DNA from: Escherichia phage FEC14
DNA length: 64,000 nucleotides
Strand: one strand, 5' to 3'
Sequence record: MG383452
Shown piece by piece: positions 4,050 through 33,305 of this stretch (positions are counted from its first letter, which is position 1; each line of letters starts with the position of its first letter). Both the position numbers and the translations under genes were made by a program. The notes under the pieces are model-generated. The model was not told the DNA's origin. It made no database searches and saw only the letters and a program-made list of their open reading frames with translations.

Positions 4050-4600
4050 TAGAACTCCAGAGTCAGAGGGGTTTCGGCAGACTTGTCATAGTTCGCACCG
4101 CCAGCAGCACGTAGACGATTGCGATCGTTCTTGCGCTTGTGGGCCAGCATATAGGTTTCGGTGTCCAGATCCAAATAACCACAAGCCTTTGATAAAAACC
4201 GCACAAAACGGATAACATCTGGTTGAACCATAAATGACGTAAAACATTCTGTGACCGATTCCAGATTGGCCGATTTGTCTATCACTCGTCCGTCCTTGAA
4301 GAAAAGGTCAATCTGCATTTCAACTGGGAAAGCAGAACCAAATCCAGATAAAATGGAAGACAACATAAAATGTACCACGTCCACCAATTCGTAGACAGCT
4401 GCTTCTCGGTCATATTGTATCCCACCGCCATAGATTTTCCAGTCCTGGGTTGTTTCGTCAAGAAACTCTGCCCACTCACGATAGATGGAGTTCACCACCG
4501 CCACATGAGTCCAATGTTTACGCCACTCTTCCCCAAAATAGGCCACGTTGGTGGCCTTTTGAAGTTCGAGCAGACTTTTGATATGCTCTGCTGTGATCAT
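4049..4600 (-). CDS. putative MazG-like all-alpha NTP pyrophosphatase (T4 gp56 dCTPase/dUTPase-like)
   Basis: 183 aa; acidic helix pattern REWAEFLDE ... EAAVYELVDVVHF typical of MazG/HisE fold; context with dNMP kinase and hydroxymethylase. Confidence 0.4.
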   Translation of the reverse strand: MITAEHIKSLLELQKATNVAYFGEEWRKHWTHVAVVNSIYREWAEFLDETTQDWKIYGGGIQYDREAAVYELVDVVHFMLSSILSGFGSAFPVEMQIDLFFKDGRVIDKSANLESVTECFTSFMVQPDVIRFVRFLSKACGYLDLDTETYMLAHKRKNDRNRLRAAGGANYDKSAETPLTLEF

Positions 4601-20604: not shown

Positions 20605-20674
20605 GTTTCTTTCCTGATGAATAAGGGGTGACGAATCACCCCTGATATTAAACGTTTGTGTTGTATAGACCTAA

Positions 20675-22951
20675 TCAAACAACACAGGTATCACAAATTT
20701 CTTCAACTTGTTTCAACTCTTCATCTTCCTTGGAGTCTTTGTTGGTGTTGTAATACAGAGTTTTACCACCCCACATGTAGAAAGACAGAATATCCTGCAT
20801 CATAAGAGAGCGCGGGATCTTGCCTTCTGGATATTTCTCTGGGTCATACCATGTGTTGGTGCTGATAGATTGATCTACCCAACGTTGTATGACCGCAGCC
20901 GTCTTCAGGTATTCAATACAATCCAGATTCCATTTCAGGTCATATAGAGGACCAAGGGTTTCTACATCCGGAACGATCTGTTTATAGACGCCGTCCTTGC
21001 TGCCTTTGATGCTGATGAGACCTTTTGGTGGCTCTATACCGTTCGTTGCGTTCAGCACCTGAGAGGAGCTTTCAGTTGGTGCTACGGCTAACAACGTGGC
21101 GTTACGGATCCCATACTCGGATAGGTTCTGCTTAAGACCTTCCCAGTCAAGACCATAGGCTTGCCCAACAGGCTTTTTGCCATTGGGTAGGATGTCCAGC
21201 GGGAGAGGCTGAAGGTCGGCTGTTACAAATCCGGAATCATGGATAGTTGATTTCTTACAAGATCCGAAACGCATGGCCAGACGGTTGGACGCTTTGACCA
21301 AGTAGAAATGAAGATGCGCCATCCACTTGTCTAGAAGTTCTAATCCGATAGGCGATCCATAACCCGTGAAATTCTTGGCCAGGAAATGTGCGACGTTGAC
21401 GATACCGATACCCAGAGGACGATATTCTTCTACGGCCAAACGGGCTTGGCGAGCTGGGTAGTCCTGATATTCCAACAACATATCCAAAGCTGAAACCAGA
21501 ACGAAAGCAACATCTTCCATTTCTGTTGGATCTTCAAATGCCGTCAGGTTAAATGATGCGAGTGTACACAGGGCAATGCGACCATCTTCATCATCATACT
21601 GTTGGAACTCACGAGTCGGGAGCGCGATTTCTAAACACAGATTAGAGCTATAAATCGTGTCCAAATTGAACGGACTATACTCGTTCATGTGATCAACGAA
21701 TGCGATGTAGATCCGTCCAGTGTCAGAACGCTGGTCTAGTAGCATTTGGAACACTTCTTCAGCTTGCAGCTTTTTGGAACGACATAACCCGGCGTCGGCG
21801 GCCTTGATCATATTGTCGTACATTTCGCGGAATTTATTGACGTCTGCGAAAAATGCTTCATACATTTCGCGGTTGTCTTTTGGATCAAACAGGTATAGAG
21901 GCTGTTTGTTCACCAGGCGCTCGAACATGACGCGGTTAATCTGAATCCCATAGTCGATACGGCGTTCACGGTTCTCTTCCAATCCACGGTTGTTTTTGAG
22001 AACAACGACATCATCAAATTGATAATGCCAGATGGGAACATAGCATGTTGCCGATCCACCACGGATACCGCCTTGAGAGCAAGACTTCAGGGCACCAGTC
22101 AAATACTTGATGAATGGAACCAGACCTGTATGGACCATTTCCCCTTTACGGATAGGGCTACCGATGCCACGAATTGCTCCAACATCGAATCCGATGCCAG
22201 CACGTTTGGAAACATAATCCACGATGCTTTTCGCAGTGGCATTAATTGAGTCCAATGTATCACCAGTTTTGATCAATACACAAGAGCTGAACTGTCGGGT
22301 CGGGGTGCGGACGCCGGACATAATAGGTGTTGGAAGACTGAATTTGCCTGTACTGGCGTATTCATAGAACTTCTTCACCATTGTCAGTCTGCTTTCTTTA
22401 TCCCACGCTGAGAATAATGCCATAGCGATTGCCATGTACATGACTTGAGGGGTTTCATAATACACTTTGCTGTCAGAAGAACGATCACGCAAAAGATATT
22501 TTTGAGTCAGCTGGCCCATTGCTGCCCAAGTGAAATTCTTGTCGCGTTTGTGGTTGATGACTGTGTTAAGTTCTTCGAATTCTTCTTTAGAGTAAAGTTC
22601 GAGGAATTCGCGGTCATAAACACCCAGCTTGGTGTTCTTTGCAAAGATATCCAGCAAATGAGGTGGCTTGTACTGACCATAGACAACCTTGCGCAGGTCA
22701 TACGACTTCAGGCGGGCAGCAACATATTGATAATTGGGTTTATCAACAGAAATTAAGGTGGCCGCAGCTTGGATAATGATATCCTGAATGCGTTCGGTTT
22801 TCATGTTATCGGTGAATTGAATCTTCGATGCAGCTTCCACCTCAGACACTGATACTCCTTCAAGGCCGTCACATGCTCGTTCAATAACGGTATGGAGTTT
22901 TTCAATGTCAAAGGGGACAGAAGATCCGTCCCGCTTTATGATGTTAATCAT
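20675..22951 (-). CDS. nrdA: ribonucleotide reductase class Ia large (alpha) subunit
   Basis: 758 aa from MINIIKRDGS (ATP-cone) with GAGGA RBS; C-terminal CDTCVV-type tail; tracked ORF extends 17 codons upstream. Confidence 0.9.
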   Translation of the reverse strand: MINIIKRDGSSVPFDIEKLHTVIERACDGLEGVSVSEVEAASKIQFTDNMKTERIQDIIIQAAATLISVDKPNYQYVAARLKSYDLRKVVYGQYKPPHLLDIFAKNTKLGVYDREFLELYSKEEFEELNTVINHKRDKNFTWAAMGQLTQKYLLRDRSSDSKVYYETPQVMYMAIAMALFSAWDKESRLTMVKKFYEYASTGKFSLPTPIMSGVRTPTRQFSSCVLIKTGDTLDSINATAKSIVDYVSKRAGIGFDVGAIRGIGSPIRKGEMVHTGLVPFIKYLTGALKSCSQGGIRGGSATCYVPIWHYQFDDVVVLKNNRGLEENRERRIDYGIQINRVMFERLVNKQPLYLFDPKDNREMYEAFFADVNKFREMYDNMIKAADAGLCRSKKLQAEEVFQMLLDQRSDTGRIYIAFVDHMNEYSPFNLDTIYSSNLCLEIALPTREFQQYDDEDGRIALCTLASFNLTAFEDPTEMEDVAFVLVSALDMLLEYQDYPARQARLAVEEYRPLGIGIVNVAHFLAKNFTGYGSPIGLELLDKWMAHLHFYLVKASNRLAMRFGSCKKSTIHDSGFVTADLQPLPLDILPNGKKPVGQAYGLDWEGLKQNLSEYGIRNATLLAVAPTESSSQVLNATNGIEPPKGLISIKGSKDGVYKQIVPDVETLGPLYDLKWNLDCIEYLKTAAVIQRWVDQSISTNTWYDPEKYPEGKIPRSLMMQDILSFYMWGGKTLYYNTNKDSKEDEELKQVEEICDTCVV

Positions 22952-27724: not shown

Positions 27725-28078
27725 TTAGGACAATTGCTTCAGTTTGTAAATCGTTTGATAGCACAAAGTTTTGATTTCGTCAAGCGTGTTTTGTAAATGG
27801 CTATCACACTGATTGTAGATCCCATTAACGTCGATGACCACGCTGTTGATATACGATATCGGTTCAGGATTGTATAATTTGATGTTCTCGAATCCTGGAA
27901 TGTATATACCACCCGCACCAATATACGCTTCCGTAAAGGTGTCTAGCAAGTCCTCCAGTTCCCCGTAGAACTCCCCGAGTGCCTTGTGCTTGGCGTAGGA
28001 CGTTGTAACGAAGTGCAGGGCATGAGAGTGGGCTATAGCAAGCAGTCCACGGTTGATGAAAATACTCGCGTTAACCAT
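27725..28078 (-). CDS. hypothetical protein (117 aa)
   Basis: ORF track. Confidence 0.4.
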   Translation of the reverse strand: MVNASIFINRGLLAIAHSHALHFVTTSYAKHKALGEFYGELEDLLDTFTEAYIGAGGIYIPGFENIKLYNPEPISYINSVVIDVNGIYNQCDSHLQNTLDEIKTLCYQTIYKLKQLS

Positions 28079-28167: not shown

Positions 28168-28773
28168 ATGAAAACTTTTCAAGACTTTTTGACCGAAGCC
28201 GCGCCGCCGATGTCTGTTCATATCAAGGCAGACAAGATCGGCAAATCCACCGAAGACAATATCGGTACTTTCTTGCGAGTTAGTGTTAGTGGCGACAAAG
28301 CCACCTTTGAAACCCCTGATGGTCGTAAGATAATCCTGACGGGTGCCAGAGACATCATTTCCGCATCTGGTCTGAAAGATGGACAGTTTGCCAGTGCCCA
28401 GATGATTGACAAGGTTGATACTGACACCGCTGTCAAGTACAACAAATCAGGCAAATATATTGACTTGTTGGATGTCAAATCAGGTATGGGCAATTCCTTT
28501 ATCTCCATTGACGGCAACAAGCAATGGAAAGAAATGACTGAAGGTGGTTGGTATGCGTATAAAGGCGGTCGCCCCGGCTTGGCTCGTTATAAGATCGCCA
28601 TGGTTATGGGACCTCATGCGGGTATGCCATCTCCTGGGGAAGATATTGAATACGAGTTACCGAATGGCGGCAAAGAACGCGGAACCGTCATGAAACTGAA
28701 TGGTGCATCCAAGCTGATGGACGTCAAAAACGAAAAAGGTAAGAAAGTACAAGTCAGTATGTATGTGAAATAA
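28168..28773 (+). CDS. putative capsid internal protein with T4-type capsid-targeting sequence
   Basis: N-terminus MKTFQDFLTE-A closely matches T4 IP leader MKTYQEFIAE-A; own terminator. Confidence 0.45.
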   Translation: MKTFQDFLTEAAPPMSVHIKADKIGKSTEDNIGTFLRVSVSGDKATFETPDGRKIILTGARDIISASGLKDGQFASAQMIDKVDTDTAVKYNKSGKYIDLLDVKSGMGNSFISIDGNKQWKEMTEGGWYAYKGGRPGLARYKIAMVMGPHAGMPSPGEDIEYELPNGGKERGTVMKLNGASKLMDVKNEKGKKVQVSMYVK

Positions 28774-28775
28774 CA

Positions 28776-28802
28776 AAACCCCGCGAAAGCGGGGTTTCTT
28801 TT
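28776..28802. terminator. bidirectional rho-independent terminator
   Basis: CCCCGC-GAAA-GCGGGG hairpin followed by TTTCTTTT. Confidence 0.55.
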
Positions 28803-29040
28803 ATGGCTTGACCAGAGTCATCTTGACGGTTTCACCCGTGTCGGTGTCTGTCAGGGTCATGACGTCTTGTGCGTTCACAGACTTCACTTTCCCCTGCCGC
28901 TTGTCGCCGTTGCGGTTGTAGTAGTCGATCAGTTCGCCTTTGGTTGGGCGGCCAACATCGGTGATGTCATACTGACCGCGCTTCCCCAGCGCCCGATGGT
29001 CTGTTGCTTCCTTCAGCAGGAAGTCCTGGAACCCTTTCAT
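28801..29040 (-). CDS. small protein with capsid-targeting-like N-terminus (79 aa)
   Basis: MKGFQDFLLKE-A leader; GGGGGA RBS. Confidence 0.4.
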   Translation of the reverse strand: MKGFQDFLLKEATDHRALGKRGQYDITDVGRPTKGELIDYYNRNGDKRQGKVKSVNAQDVMTLTDTDTGETVKMTLVKP

Positions 29041-29048
29041 ACATCCCC

Positions 29049-29618
29049 CTAGACAGGCTTAACGCCGAGGAACTTGGCGATATCAGCAGCCAGGTTTTTA
29101 CCCTTGCTGATGTCCTGCTCTTTGCCGTTGCAGGTGACGATCACATATGGGTCGTCTTCGCCGCCGAAGTTCACGGTGATCGCCTTGCCGATGCCTGGGA
29201 TACCAGAGTATTCGAACTCAGTGCGACCACTTTTGCGGGACTTGCCAACACCCAGTGCTTTACCGATCATCTTGTCCATGTTCGCCAGTTCCTGAGCATA
29301 GGCTTCGGTCACCTGGCCTTTGTCAGCAGACTTGCCAAAGAAGAATTCGAAACCGTCATGGACAGCAACGACTTCCTGACCTTGGGAGATACCGTGAGTC
29401 TGGTCTGGGGTTAGTTTGACTTTTGCTGTGTTACCGTCAGTGAGTTCCAGGTTGTAGACATCCGCCTGATTGTCAGGGGTGATCTGGGTGATGACAGCTC
29501 CAGAGCACCACAATGTTCCATCAGCTTGGCTTTTGATGGATATACTCTTGCCCTGGATGCCAGCATGGGTCTGAGGCTGAGCGGCTTGTTCTTTGAAATA
29601 TTGAAGGAACGGTTTCAT
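29049..29618 (-). CDS. putative capsid internal protein (189 aa), late gene
   Basis: MKPFLQYFKE-Q leader; GAGGAG RBS; exact late promoter 24 nt upstream. Confidence 0.5.
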   Translation of the reverse strand: MKPFLQYFKEQAAQPQTHAGIQGKSISIKSQADGTLWCSGAVITQITPDNQADVYNLELTDGNTAKVKLTPDQTHGISQGQEVVAVHDGFEFFFGKSADKGQVTEAYAQELANMDKMIGKALGVGKSRKSGRTEFEYSGIPGIGKAITVNFGGEDDPYVIVTCNGKEQDISKGKNLAADIAKFLGVKPV

Positions 29619-29642
29619 CTTAATCTCCTCGGGGATTTCAGT

Positions 29643-29650
29643 TATTTATA
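29643..29650 (-). promoter_or_regulatory. T4-type late promoter TATAAATA (minus strand)
   Basis: plus-strand TATTTATA = minus TATAAATA, 24 nt upstream of ATG 29618. Confidence 0.5.
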
Positions 29651-29651
29651 A

Positions 29652-29665
29652 GCCCCCGAAGGGGC
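29652..29665 (-). terminator. stem-loop downstream of the 638-aa gene (possible terminator/RNA stability element)
   Basis: GCCCC-CGAA-GGGGC hairpin immediately after stop codon; weak T-run. Confidence 0.35.
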
Positions 29666-29674
29666 TTTCGATGA

Positions 29675-31591
29675 TCAGATCTTAATCTGCATATTGCCGC
29701 CCAGGGACTGCTCGTACTCGCTGTACGCGCTTTCCCCGTTGCTTGCAGCCCATTCGTCAGACTGCTGAGCGCGAGACAGAGTCATCAGGTTTGGTTCAGT
29801 CGGGTTGTATCCCTTGGACTTAGCATCCTGGTACAGAGTCTGCAGGTACTGGTTAGCGCGATCGATTTGAGCCTTGAACTCGCGATATGCACCTTCGGTT
29901 GTGTTACGACGGAAGGTGATATCCCAGTCCACGTTCAGAGTCTGACCATCACGGCTTGCATAGATCTGCCAATCCAGGTCGCGACCTTTTGGAGCGTTGT
30001 CGCGGATGGAGCCTGCATATGTTGCCAGGTCTACACCAGTCTTTTTAGCGGTCGCTAAAACCAAGGGTGCCAAGCGATCAATAGCGGTTTGCACTATTGC
30101 GGTCAGTTTGGACGGTTTGGTGATGTCGATGTCTCGGATGACGATAGGCTGGCCGATGGTCTTCCCATTCGGTCCATATTCGGTAATTGCTTTGACAGTC
30201 AGCACAATAGGATCACTTCCTTTGGTGATACCACGGTTGATCGTCGCTGTTACAGCCCCTTTCGCGCCAAAAGAGACACTACCGGAGGCCATCGTAGAAG
30301 AAGACACACCACGAAGTTCATTTACTTTGTAGAATGCGTTCACCAGAGCACGCCAGCGGTCTGTTGTGAGTTCGGCTGCCGTGGTTTGAGCAGGAGCCAC
30401 AGCCCCAACGCCAAATTCAACATAAGCCACAATCTTGCCACCCGACTTCAGTTCCCAACCCATACCCTGACGGTCAGAAGCCGCCATGAGTTTACGATCC
30501 ACTTCCCCACGACCAACATATTCTTTGTTGAATACGGTCACCTGAGCGATAGATTGGGAGCGGGCAATCTTCGCCATTGCGCCATCTTTGACCATGATGG
30601 CCAGATCATTGGAACTCAGAGTCACGTCGTTGGCACCGACTACCTTCACAACAGAACTGAAGATGCCGTTGGATTTCGCCATGACGGAAATGTTCCAGTC
30701 AGGGTTGGCATCACTGGTCGGGAAGTTAATTTCACGCCAGTCTTTGACGCGTTGGTTGAAATTATTGAGCAGATCCGAAGGAGGAACAGGAACACCAAAT
30801 TCACGACAAATATCTTCTACGGTCGGTTCTACCACCTGCTTTCTACCGTTCTGACCAACGAGGACATCGGCCTCACTCAGGCTTGGGGTAATGTCCAAGT
30901 CAAATGTGCCACGCTGATAATAGTTGATGCGAGGAGGCTGACCGATCTTACCACGCCATGACCAGGTTGCGGGATTGTTGGTAGTAGCGCCAACATTAGT
31001 GTCTTGAGTATCGTTCTGAACCGGAACGTCGCCGACCTTGTCTGGATCATCCCATGTGACACCTTTCATTTTCGGACCATCGAATACCTGAGCAGGATCC
31101 TTACCTTTACGCACAACCCATACGAATGCACGATCAGGGATAGGGGTATACGTCAGGTCCATGACATTGAGCTTCTGCTTCAGGCCGGACTGACGGATGA
31201 TCTTCGGCAGGAGGGTAACACCACGTTCCAATGCTTTCTTGGAGAAGTTAATTGCAAAGCCGTCAATGGTTTTCCCCAAAGGCGTCGCCATGAATTGCTT
31301 TGTTGCTTCGATCATGGATGCGATGACACGCATTGGGTTTTTGAAACGACCGATTGCGTCTGGATAGGTCGAACCACGTTTCTGGCCTATGAAGACCTGA
31401 CGAACGTTCTTGCCCAGCCCCTGCGGGGTATAAAATTGGATGCGGAATTCTTTTTCGTCTTCATCAACAAATGTGAAGAAAATGTCACCAGCGTTCTTCT
31501 TACCGAATGTCAATTCATACGGGGATGAGTTAAACGCTTCGTCTAATTGTTTAGACTCTTCAAGAAAGTTCAAGAAAGATGGGATGGCCAT
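29675..31591 (-). CDS. large protein (638 aa) with capsid-targeting-like N-terminus; candidate packaged/injected protein
   Basis: MAIPSFLNFLEE-S leader resembling L-x-E cleavage context; AGGAGA RBS. Confidence 0.5.
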   Translation of the reverse strand: MAIPSFLNFLEESKQLDEAFNSSPYELTFGKKNAGDIFFTFVDEDEKEFRIQFYTPQGLGKNVRQVFIGQKRGSTYPDAIGRFKNPMRVIASMIEATKQFMATPLGKTIDGFAINFSKKALERGVTLLPKIIRQSGLKQKLNVMDLTYTPIPDRAFVWVVRKGKDPAQVFDGPKMKGVTWDDPDKVGDVPVQNDTQDTNVGATTNNPATWSWRGKIGQPPRINYYQRGTFDLDITPSLSEADVLVGQNGRKQVVEPTVEDICREFGVPVPPSDLLNNFNQRVKDWREINFPTSDANPDWNISVMAKSNGIFSSVVKVVGANDVTLSSNDLAIMVKDGAMAKIARSQSIAQVTVFNKEYVGRGEVDRKLMAASDRQGMGWELKSGGKIVAYVEFGVGAVAPAQTTAAELTTDRWRALVNAFYKVNELRGVSSSTMASGSVSFGAKGAVTATINRGITKGSDPIVLTVKAITEYGPNGKTIGQPIVIRDIDITKPSKLTAIVQTAIDRLAPLVLATAKKTGVDLATYAGSIRDNAPKGRDLDWQIYASRDGQTLNVDWDITFRRNTTEGAYREFKAQIDRANQYLQTLYQDAKSKGYNPTEPNLMTLSRAQQSDEWAASNGESAYSEYEQSLGGNMQIKI

Positions 31592-31669
31592 TGTAATTCT
31601 CCTGATTATAAAATCGGTGCGGTTTCCCTTAATTAGCGAAAAGAAAGGGATGCTAACACCCCTTTATTC

Positions 31670-31945
31670 TTAACGACGGAACGGGCGAGACGCGTTTTGG
31701 CGATTGTTGTAATTCTTATCAAATTGTGCCAACGCCGCCGGACTCCATTCGCGTTCCCATTCTTTGTCAACTTCGGTTTGGTTGGCAGGTTCAATCATTT
31801 CAGCAGTAGGAAAATCGCGTTTCATAATTTCACGCAATTGTTCAGAAGGGGCGGTTTGGGCGTGGACTAATTCTTCACCGTCGTAAACTTTGGCCATCAA
31901 CCATTTGCTGCCGTAACGGATATATGCGTCGAGGATGATTTTCAT
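31670..31945 (-). CDS. hypothetical protein (91 aa)
   Basis: ATG 31945 with GCAGGAACTACATT context; tracked ORF begins 7 codons upstream. Confidence 0.4.
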   Translation of the reverse strand: MKIILDAYIRYGSKWLMAKVYDGEELVHAQTAPSEQLREIMKRDFPTAEMIEPANQTEVDKEWEREWSPAALAQFDKNYNNRQNASRPFRR

Positions 31946-32017
31946 AATGTAGTTCCTGCTTTTCAAGTTGGTGTCGTACTGCTTATGTTTAGAATTATAC
32001 GTGGGTTATTGAAGAAG

Positions 32018-32049: not shown

Positions 32050-32688
32050 TTAAGGTGTTGGATTGACAACGGGAATATGGAACCTGATTCCAGAGACAAT
32101 GTCCTTCAGCTGAGGCTTCCAGCCGTCCACCAGGCGGGACAACGCGTTAGAACCAGGATAGACAATAATGATGTCGCTTCCGGTTACATTATGTTGAGGG
32201 AATTGTGACATGTATTGCTCCATCGTCACCCCTGGGTCTATCAACACAGGACCGACATCCGAAGATGCATATGTTGCCCCCAAACCGTCGACGCCCCATG
32301 CTAGTATTCCATAATCAGGAATATTGGCTTCAGAAGTTATGGTGAATCCGAAGATACGATTCAGCGCAGAAAAATCATACACGCCGTGAGCACTGTCATA
32401 TGTCAGATAACCCTTTGACAGCATATCAGCGAATATCGCGTCTGTGTCACCAGTTGCCGGAGTCGGTATGGTAAACAATAACTCACCAGCAGGAGGGGAT
32501 GGATACGTGCCGAGCGCATAAAGGCACCAAGCGTCAATGCATTTCTTGATGAATGCTTCAGGCGCGACATAATCCGCAAGGCGCATTGTACCGGAATATT
32601 CTGAAGTAATGATCCCTTCCTTCGCGCCCTGAATGGCCAGAAATACCATTATGTGTTCATATCCGGTCTGAGATGGAGTGATATTCAT
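32050..32688 (-). CDS. hypothetical protein (212 aa)
   Basis: ORF track. Confidence 0.45.
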   Translation of the reverse strand: MNITPSQTGYEHIMVFLAIQGAKEGIITSEYSGTMRLADYVAPEAFIKKCIDAWCLYALGTYPSPPAGELLFTIPTPATGDTDAIFADMLSKGYLTYDSAHGVYDFSALNRIFGFTITSEANIPDYGILAWGVDGLGATYASSDVGPVLIDPGVTMEQYMSQFPQHNVTGSDIIIVYPGSNALSRLVDGWKPQLKDIVSGIRFHIPVVNPTP

Positions 32689-33305
32689 TATCTGGTCCTC
32701 TTGAGTTTCTCAATCGTGCGCTTATTCATGGCGATCACTCCTGGGTCGACCTTTGGGTTTATTGCCATGCCTTTGAAAGACACACATCGTTGAAGATATT
32801 TAGCCTTCTTCACGACGTCGGCTGCATAAGAATTGGATTTCTGGTTACGATTGAACCCAGCATTGTAAGAGGAAAGGGATTTGCGGATGTTTTGGTTATG
32901 ATATTCTAGCCAGAAATTCATTTCATCAAGGGCAGCATTGGCAGCATATTCTTGATTGACCAGTAATTTGATCGCCACGTTGGCGTAACACTTCTGTGTT
33001 TTGCATCCCTCCCGTTTCCCGACGGTTTGGACGCGATTTTGAAATGCCCCCATATTAGCCGATTTGAGGTTATTCCGCATGGATACAACATCTTCTCCAG
33101 CGCGGCTTTCCCTCCATGATATTGCGGCGAGAGTGAAACCAAGGTCTTGTTGTTTTCCCACGTGATAGGCTGTGGCCATGGTTGAAAGTTGTTGATCAGA
33201 AAACTCATAATCACATTGGGTGGTACTTTGGGAAGCGTGCACACTCCCGCTGGCAATGGTAAAGGTCACGGACAAGGCCATGGCCTTCAACGTTGTCATC
33301 GTCAT
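32688..33305 (-). CDS. secreted protein with lytic-transglycosylase (SLT)-like domain
   Basis: signal-peptide-like N-terminus (…ASGSVHA); ESRAG, GAFQN and SYNAG motifs in SLT order. Confidence 0.45.
   Translation of the reverse strand: MTMTTLKAMALSVTFTIASGSVHASQSTTQCDYEFSDQQLSTMATAYHVGKQQDLGFTLAAISWRESRAGEDVVSMRNNLKSANMGAFQNRVQTVGKREGCKTQKCYANVAIKLLVNQEYAANAALDEMNFWLEYHNQNIRKSLSSYNAGFNRNQKSNSYAADVVKKAKYLQRCVSFKGMAINPKVDPGVIAMNKRTIEKLKRTR

Follow-up and report, generated by a model that had tools for sequence, protein, structure and literature searches.

A probable internal-protein locus in the Kuttervirus FEC14, with T4-type leaders and an Alt relative lacking the ADP-ribosyltransferase domain

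Proteins that are packed into the phage head and delivered with the DNA form a kind of system well known from phage T4. In the giant phages SPN3US and phiKZ, too, a prohead protease related to T4's trims many of the proteins inside the head, and these are ejected into the host. The capsid targeting sequence that T4's internal proteins IPI, IPII and IPIII carry was described by Mullaney & Black (1996) and is reviewed in PMC3012670. In its passages on Alt and polyvalent proteins, a survey of the polyvalent proteins of phages and conjugative elements (Iyer et al. 2017; PMC5512222) presents T4 Alt as a prototype of an injected host-modifying enzyme; those passages do not mention the Alt N-terminal domain (Alt-N) as a common, widespread N-terminal module. 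Our search of the open-access literature found no paper combining 'capsid targeting sequence' with Ackermannviridae, and a 2024 review of that family neither uses the word 'internal' nor mentions packaged effector proteins; a bioRxiv paper dealing with Taipeivirus and BREX likewise says nothing of packaged proteins. Here we describe a cluster of four leader-bearing genes in a 64,000-nucleotide stretch of Escherichia phage FEC14 (MG383452; hereafter the window), a Kuttervirus of the Ackermannviridae in the order Pantevenvirales, to which T4 also belongs (NCBI taxonomy). What is new is the presence and form of such a system in the Ackermannviridae, together with a cassette-shuffled relative of Alt that has no ADP-ribosyltransferase domain.

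We consider it likely that the cluster is an internal-protein locus working as in T4. Since it combines four T4-type head-loading tags with the front domain of Alt, we regard it as a variable locus of proteins very probably delivered into the host with the DNA. In the mechanism we propose, the four proteins would probably be made late in infection, and a short N-terminal leader of amphipathic character would bring them into the scaffolding core as the prohead assembles. A gp21-type (S77) prohead protease would then cut the leader off after a hydrophobic-x-Glu site, and the trimmed proteins would remain in the DNA-filled head and exit with the DNA at infection.

Leaders and bodies of the four proteins

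The four neighbouring open reading frames (ORFs), encoding 201, 79, 189 and 638 aa (Table 1), start with M-K-x-F-x-[DEQ]-[FY]-[LF]-x-E or a variant of it; the large protein has the variant form, xxPSFLNFLEE. A strict leader pattern (^M.{1,5}[FYW]..[FYW][LIFVM].{1,2}E) matched exactly these four among the 876 ATG-initiated ORFs of at least 40 aa in the window. In the whole genome of the congeneric phage Sajous1, the same pattern matched three homologues of the cluster genes, two unrelated annotated genes (a membrane protein and a sheath stabiliser) and two spurious ORFs, against a mean of 0.75 matches in each shuffled genome. These scans indicate that the leader is specific to the cluster locus. 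An earlier note on this DNA, made from its letters and ORFs, had reported the four ORFs and their shared start, and both are borne out, the pattern being unique to them in the window. The genes are adjacent, as the note had it, but the 201-aa gene lies on the opposite strand. Chance likeness of the leaders, which would have undone the note's proposal, is unlikely given four matches where 0.75 are expected per shuffled whole genome.

Compared over the leader plus the residue after the cut (the cut is shown by a slash throughout), the 201-aa leader is identical to MKTYQEFIAE/A of T4 at 7 of 11 positions and similar at 10, and the 79-aa leader is identical at 6 and similar at 9. The earlier note had ascribed this T4 leader to all three internal proteins; it holds for IPII and IPIII, but IPI begins MKTFKEFTSTTTPVSTITE/A. 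By motif, prohead-protease sites are predicted after LTE/A in the 201-aa protein, LKE/A in the 79-aa protein, LEE/S and LDE/A in the large protein and FKE/Q in the 189-aa protein. The motif [LI]xE[AGSQ] is nearly confined to the N-termini of these proteins, and the FLTE/A of the 201-aa leader is identical to the end of the T4 gp23 maturation site, SFLTE/A. Across Kuttervirus, Agtrevirus, Limestonevirus, Taipeivirus and Miltonvirus the leaders are kept while the protein bodies change. Leaders of the 189-aa family read MKPF[LI].YF.E/Q, MKTFLEFFTE/Q and MKKFSEFLIE/Q, those of the 79-aa family MKGF.DFL..E/A and MKSFGDYLLKE/R. Three of the four predicted mature proteins are basic (pI 9.1-9.3), compared with pI 9.0-9.7 for the T4 internal proteins.

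The bodies of the small proteins share a simple plan. The 201-aa family comprises only 5 clusters in a set of 5.8 billion proteins, all on contigs of ~158 kb; M1, K2, F4, L8, E10 and A11 of its leader are invariant, and its C-terminal ~48 residues are homologous to the C-terminus of the 79-aa protein (BLASTP 7e-6). The gene is present in phage MK-13 and absent from Se-B, Sajous1, LIMEstone1 and Menlow. The 79-aa protein has homologues with MKGF[QPK]DFL..E/A in Kuttervirus, Limestonevirus and Miltonvirus, and in MK-13 (4084-4566) it occurs as a 160-aa variant with an insertion of ~80 residues between the leader and the conserved C-terminal domain. From the shared C-terminus and this insertion, we read the small proteins, by sequence comparison, as built of a leader, a variable part and a small conserved domain. 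An LKLPPIPDDLL motif within the MK-13 insertion recalls the (L/V)P..P...L(N/K).F motifs found in cassettes of the large protein; BLASTP did not support the derivation of the insertion from such a cassette. Homologues of the 189-aa protein, which matches phrog_4048 (function unknown) and is conserved across the Ackermannviridae, were found by tblastn in 275 phage records from all five genera named above. Pfam and PHROGs assigned a function to none of the four leader proteins, and PDB sequence searches with them returned nothing useful, the copy searched holding no Ackermannviridae capsid structure.

The locus is polymorphic as a whole. The region aligns with many Ackermannviridae genomes at ~90% identity but only ~75% coverage, and is therefore variable: some phages have the 201-aa gene and others lack it, the small protein occurs in forms of 79 and 160 aa, and the size of the large protein varies between 546 and 1025 aa.

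The exact T4-type late promoter box TATAAATA that the earlier note reported was found as described, ahead of the 189-aa gene. All three exact copies of the box in the window precede a start codon by 26-35 nt, and the LIMEstone1 annotation marks the same element as a putative late promoter. The 79-aa gene starts 9 nt past the 189-aa gene, and this spacing suggests that the two are probably co-transcribed. The terminator-like hairpin upstream of the 638-aa gene implies that this gene has its own promoter in the remaining ~50 nt, where only a TATAAT-like box is visible; no clear late box was seen in the window before the 638-aa or the 201-aa gene. A late-type box, CTAAATA, lies 36 nt upstream of the neighbouring Dps-like gene.

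The large protein and the front domain of Alt

The 638-aa protein is 100% identical to HYP54_gp094 of FEC14 and belongs to a family of 267 members in the 5.8-billion-protein set; among the 120 of these that were listed, sizes run from 546 to 1025 aa and the carriers are Ackermannviridae phages or contigs mostly of similar size. Segment-wise BLASTP of 30 members spanning this size range divides the protein into a leader, a front domain, a variable middle and a conserved end. Residues 18-190 are almost invariant within the Ackermannviridae. The middle is made up of cassettes that relatives have, lack or carry in another order; it has no Pfam match and a predicted local distance difference test (pLDDT) score of 41-85. 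The C-terminal domain, with 47-98% identity in 28 of the 29 other members compared, is the best-predicted part of the 638-aa model (pLDDT 82-93). Searches of Pfam, PHROGs and PDB sequences gave the modular, variable cassettes no assignable activity.

The earlier note placed the cleavage of this protein at E12/S13. Across the 30 members, E18, A19, F20 and N21 are invariant and E12 is not, being lost in variants such as FMQD-K and FLIKK (also MASFQDFLIKKDPQLQE/AFNS). E18/A19 is for that reason the most likely cut, so that the conserved site is probably [LI]-x-E18/A19 (QLDE/AFNS) in place of the one proposed; a second cut at E12/S13 is possible in FEC14.

Foldseek against predicted viral structures returned Ackermannviridae relatives first, followed by Alt-type RNA polymerase ADP-ribosyltransferases of T4-like phages (E 5e-5 to 4e-3); phage proteins with deaminase or ParB domains were also among the matches. 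An AlphaFold model of the domain alone was poorer (pLDDT 53.7) than the full-length model and was left out of the fold search. When residues 19-200 were used as a phmmer query against 1.84 billion representative proteins (E <=0.001), 90 clusters were recovered. In all of them the domain is at the very N-terminus, and the proteins have 279-1677 aa apart from one fragment of 50 aa. In the 52 most remote clusters, Pfam ADPrib_exo_Tox occurs in five (best 1e-18), and an anthrax-lethal-factor-like domain and DinI occur in one each. Against PHROGs, five give matches to families named Alt-like ADP-ribosyltransferase and 46, by way of their N-domain, to the Ackermannviridae PHROG. The catalytic region of T4 Alt matches four of the remote relatives locally (1e-16 to 9e-5), and the N-domains of these same four match that of FEC14 at 2e-14, 4e-14, 9e-13 and 8e-5 in the whole library.

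We also built a hidden Markov model (HMM) from the first 240 residues of the family. It scored the Alt N-termini of eight diverse T4-like phages at 30.8, 25.5, 24.1, 16.5, 13.1, 12.7, 9.7 and 8.2 bits, compared with a maximum of 10.1 bits among 2000 composition-matched shuffles, and the scores changed little after the members bearing ADP-ribosyltransferase domains were dropped. The junctions agree as well: in 48 of the 52 remote relatives a short leader ends in [LIMFV]xE and [AS][FL][DN]S.PY follows, the Alt proteins of T4-like phages have xL[NDT]E/[VL]F, and the GenBank record of T4 alt gives six N-terminal residues as cleaved off. Direct comparisons with T4 Alt were non-significant, both by BLASTP and by hhalign of an alignment designated A3 (E 0.54); the link to Alt needed the broader family HMM and the ADP-ribosyltransferase-bearing intermediates. 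A homologue search started from the T4 Alt-N itself recovered only four proteins. In T4 Alt the ADP-ribosyltransferase domain occupies residues 374-614, and the first ~370 residues have no Pfam assignment in our local copy; PF26846 is a newer Pfam family precomputed on Alt N-terminal fragments.

On the strength of these sequence and profile comparisons we place the 638-aa protein, over residues 19-195, in the family of the T4 Alt N-terminal domain. The catalytic ADPrib_exo_Tox domain (R-S-E) is lacking, and BLASTP against Alt found nothing in that region. We accordingly classify the 638-aa protein, on the same grounds, as an Alt-family packaged protein without the ADP-ribosyltransferase domain. 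Several remote relatives bearing Alt-N have two-part leaders, for example MTSFKKILQE/GMSEEQQLLSE/SFNT, in which a targeting sequence of the internal-protein type precedes a second site, of the Alt type, as it does in FEC14; proteins of more than 1,600 aa are among them. We suggest tentatively, at somewhat less than even confidence, that Alt-N and a short protease-cleaved leader may together form a general head-loading and delivery adaptor of T4-order phages with interchangeable cargo, and that the Ackermannviridae locus may be an arsenal of injected effectors under recombination, its cassettes following the defences of hosts. If so, many unknown cassettes would be among the cargo, alongside domains of the ADP-ribosyltransferase, anthrax-lethal-factor-like and DinI-like kinds, and the proteins carrying it would reach about 1,700 aa.

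Head machinery, virion presence and competing explanations

The head module lies outside the FEC14 window and was therefore examined in Sajous1. There, gp155 is a Peptidase_S77 protease (1.3e-27) that is 36% identical to T4 gp21 (2e-21), and gp156 is a gp22-type scaffold (T4_CASP, 9.4e-45) starting MKPELQNLFE/G. The gp23-type capsid protein (Gp23, 1.8e-122) has NLGE/S at residue 51, just before the region covered by Pfam Gp23; the capsid protein of phage AG3 migrates as if ~3 kDa lighter than predicted, in keeping with trimming. The small prohead core protein gp154 (20609-20923) begins MEITDIATFADFLASRMDE/Q, a start whose last part reads ...FADFLASRMDE/Q, and its C-terminus resembles T4 gp68 (7e-5). 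Hydrophobic-x-E sites are thus present at the N-termini of these head proteins. Because gp154 combines an F-x-D-F-L element with a hydrophobic-x-E site like the cluster leaders, the targeting element may be shared with genuine core proteins.

Virion presence was assessed by mapping the published proteomes of CsCl-purified Sajous1 and LIMEstone1 virions onto syntenic homologues. Sajous1 gp214-217 are syntenic with the FEC14 genes for the large, 189-aa, 79-aa and Dps-like proteins, respectively. CsCl-purified Sajous1 virions yielded 196 spectra for gp214, placing it among the top five proteins, 32 for gp215, 20 for gp216 and 10 for gp217 (PMC10892097). Normalised for length, gp214 reaches 0.25 spectra per residue, compared with 0.29 for the tail tube and 0.14 for the sheath; this abundance does not fit a six-copy tail-completion protein. 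In LIMEstone1, ORF080 (homologue of the 189-aa protein), ORF081 and ORF082 (the large gene) and ORF078 (Dps-like) are confirmed structural proteins, and virion mass spectrometry covered 55% of ORF081 with 23 peptides. The large gene of LIMEstone1 (NC_019925, 9416-11012) is annotated as the overlapping ORF082 and ORF081, both detected by mass spectrometry; the end of ORF082 is out of frame, and ORF081 has as its start a Val within the N-domain. Either this is a frameshift from sequencing or the Alt-N domain is genuinely split. The protein is intact in Dickeya phage RC-2014, at 531 aa. The text on the gel-band proteome of EspM4VN names none of the cluster proteins. The earlier note had expected the proteins in virions, and homologues of the 638-, 189- and 79-aa proteins are indeed present in purified particles of Sajous1, those of the 638- and 189-aa proteins also in LIMEstone1.

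We infer from these data a location inside the capsid, actual cleavage and ejection into the host, and several observations weigh against that interpretation. Detection in virions alone places the proteins neither inside the capsid nor in the host, and the T4-type head machinery was seen in Sajous1, not in the window. The Dps-like protein reaches virions with no leader, so the leader is not the sole route into the particle. The two proteomes cover homologues of the 638-, 189- and 79-aa proteins and not the 201-aa protein, the 79-aa homologue went undetected in the LIMEstone1 virion proteome, and peptides reporting leader removal were not found in the available part of the Sajous1 peptide table or in the EspM4VN and LIMEstone1 supplements. 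The 189-aa leader is a weaker match to T4 (3/11 identical, 5/11 similar) and has F at P3, neither L nor I, and within the cluster the exact late promoter is limited to the 189/79-aa operon. On the side of Alt, T4's own protein scores only 9.7 bits with the family HMM, below the decoy maximum, and hhalign of the Ackermannviridae family with Alt-N is non-significant (E 0.28), if collinear over 168 columns.

The four could also be internal head proteins whose part is purely physical or in assembly: they would, for instance, neutralise the charge of the DNA, fill the core or help the DNA out, would have no specific host target, and would vary by drift as non-essential fillers. The basic character of three of the four mature proteins, their abundance in virions and the absence of a catalytic domain from all four in PHROGs, Pfam and PDB sequence searches all suit such a role. 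To our knowledge T4 IPII and IPIII have no established specific target either. We nevertheless think this account unlikely. In other proteins Alt-N is joined to ADP-ribosyltransferase, ATLF-like and DinI-like cargo; next to a near-invariant N-domain, entire cassettes are exchanged in a way that looks modular rather than like drift; and the 201-aa accessory gene behaves as a module gained or lost. The N-domain of the large protein could instead be itself an enzyme, an injected GNAT-like acyltransferase modifying a host or phage target and not (only) a packaging module. The GNAT-like fold resemblance of the 638-aa protein is a weak lead in that direction, and we hold this proposal to be improbable. 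The 638-aa protein has no Pfam match at E <=0.1 and lacks the ADP-ribosyltransferase domain of Alt, and no catalytic domain was found in it; these results lend no support to the earlier note's suggestion that the protein, by its size, could be an enzyme.

In the Sajous1 report the proteins are read as tail or 'ferrojan horse' iron-piracy components (PMC10892097). Their presence in purified virions and a neighbour with a ferritin/Dps-like fold would fit, but the published assignments rest on low-confidence Phyre2 hits, and PHROGs and Pfam show no similarity to tail proteins. The part of that report on TonB- and FeoB-deficient Salmonella, a single host, describes no dependence on iron uptake. 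Spectral abundance is too high for a tail-completion protein, while leaders, cleavage sites and Alt-N homology all point to the head; we hold an iron-piracy or tail role to be very improbable. Scarcely credible, in our judgement, is a coincidental leader likeness, or one serving another purpose such as translation-initiation context or membrane and secretion targeting, with virion detection put down to contamination. The motif is short and does match the two unrelated Sajous1 genes; yet the four matching genes are adjacent where less than one match is expected per whole genome, the conserved positions are exactly those of the T4 motif, homologues appear in two independent proteomes (one at 55% coverage), and the leaders are too weakly hydrophobic for signal peptides.

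An internal-protein locus working as in T4 remains the reading we prefer. IPI*, Alt and the polyvalent proteins offer analogies that make a part in host takeover or counter-defence plausible, and these phages carry the hypermodified thymidine 5-NeOmdU, which invites modification-dependent restriction. The earlier note had called the four proteins packaged effectors. Packaging is upheld by the T4-type leaders, the head machinery, the virion homologues and Alt-N; for anti-defence or reprogramming activity these analyses brought no evidence.

Surroundings of the cluster and comparison with known systems

The genes flanking the cluster (Table 1) include further candidate virion proteins. The Dps-like neighbour, which bears the annotation 'starvation-inducible transcriptional regulator', occurs in purified virions from two relatives and has neither a leader nor a hydrophobic-x-E site near its N-terminus. 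The homologue of the 205-aa protein in Sajous1, gp211, is annotated as a RegB RNA endonuclease and gave 31 spectra in virions; the 205-aa protein is probably a mis-annotated virion-associated peptidoglycan hydrolase. At the position of the 98-aa ORF, Sajous1 and MK-13 have quite different genes (129 and 123 aa), so the variability extends beyond the leader-bearing genes.

Table 1. Features of the FEC14 leader-protein cluster and its flanks, in window coordinates
Feature	Position	Strand	Details
117-aa Dps/ferritin-like protein (DUF5856)	27725..28078	-	Pfam DUF5856 1.4e-28; phrog_858
201-aa accessory leader protein	28168..28773	+	leader MKTFQDFLTE/A, codons 28168-28197; predicted mature 191 aa, pI 9.3
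Bidirectional terminator hairpin	28775..28798	both	between convergent 201-aa and 79-aa genes
79-aa leader protein	28801..29040	-	leader MKGFQDFLLKE/A, codons 29008-29040; predicted mature 68 aa, pI 9.1
189-aa leader protein	29049..29618	-	leader MKPFLQYFKE/Q, codons 29589-29618; predicted mature 179 aa, pI 5.6
Exact T4-type late promoter box TATAAATA	29643..29650	-	26 nt upstream of 189-aa start
Hairpin ending 638-aa gene	~29650-29669	-	TATAAATA box comes directly after
638-aa protein	29675-31591	-	begins MAIPSFLNFLEE/S
Conserved C-terminal domain of 638-aa protein	29675..30046	-	residues 516-638 and stop codon
Variable middle of 638-aa protein	30047..31006	-	residues 196-515; cassettes about 196-295, 296-400, 401-515
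Alt-N-type domain of 638-aa protein	31007..31537	-	residues 19-195
18-residue leader of 638-aa protein, MAIPSFLNFLEESKQLDE/A	31538..31591	-	F-L-x-F-L capsid-targeting-like element and Alt-type L-x-E/A site
Terminator-like hairpin upstream of 638-aa gene	31644..31665	-	
ORF upstream of large gene	31670-31966	-	TTG start, 98 aa; relatives annotate ATG start, 91 aa
212-aa DUF7270 protein	32050-32688	-	no leader; LIMEstone1 homologue ORF085 confirmed structural protein
205-aa protein	32688-33305	-	signal-peptide-like N-terminal segment; weak SLT lytic-transglycosylase match, 1.6e-4

Kuttervirus phages and their relatives are in wide use for biocontrol and therapy and have very broad host ranges, and their abundant 'unknown structural proteins' have so far been read as tail or iron-piracy components. 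The head-packaged reading gives concrete candidates for factors of first-minute host takeover or anti-defence, and points to a tag already at hand for packing foreign proteins into the heads of Ackermannviridae. It also makes of the uncharacterised N-terminal third of Alt a widespread module, which may explain how large cargo is loaded and delivered.

Like the T4 internal proteins, the FEC14 proteins have an N-terminal leader of ~10 residues followed by a hydrophobic-x-Glu protease site, and both systems encode a gp21-type protease and a gp22-type scaffold (on the FEC14 side, as seen in Sajous1). In both, the proteins are mostly basic, largely small and present in virions, and come from a polymorphic locus in which only the leader is conserved. 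T4 belongs to the Straboviridae, whereas the FEC14 locus is found in the Ackermannviridae and its mature bodies are unrelated; the T4 genes are scattered and those of FEC14 clustered, and P3 of the FEC14-type site can be F or M. For T4 the target pair IPI*/GmrSD is established, while cleavage, capsid location and injection in FEC14 are predictions from sequence.

The large protein resembles T4 Alt in having a homologous N-domain right after a short leader ending in L-x-E (MELITE/LF in T4, SKQLDE/AF in FEC14) and in being a large virion protein that is probably made late. It differs in its shuffled cassettes and in the conserved C-terminal domain that replaces ADPrib_exo_Tox; its leader has 18 residues compared with six in Alt and contains an F-L-x-F-L element of the internal-protein type. 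With the polyvalent proteins, as set out in the passages cited above, it shares a multidomain build, delivery with the invading DNA, variable domain make-up and a gene near those for virion proteins, but not recognisable enzymatic domains. The head-internal proteins of SPN3US and phiKZ are unrelated to those of FEC14 and have a different cleavage motif and propeptide organisation. The Dar proteins of phage P1 (DarA/DarB), which are packaged in the head, injected with the DNA and protective against host restriction, offer a functional analogy only: they have no sequence relation to the FEC14 proteins and enter the head by a different pathway, and an anti-restriction role for the FEC14 proteins would be speculation.

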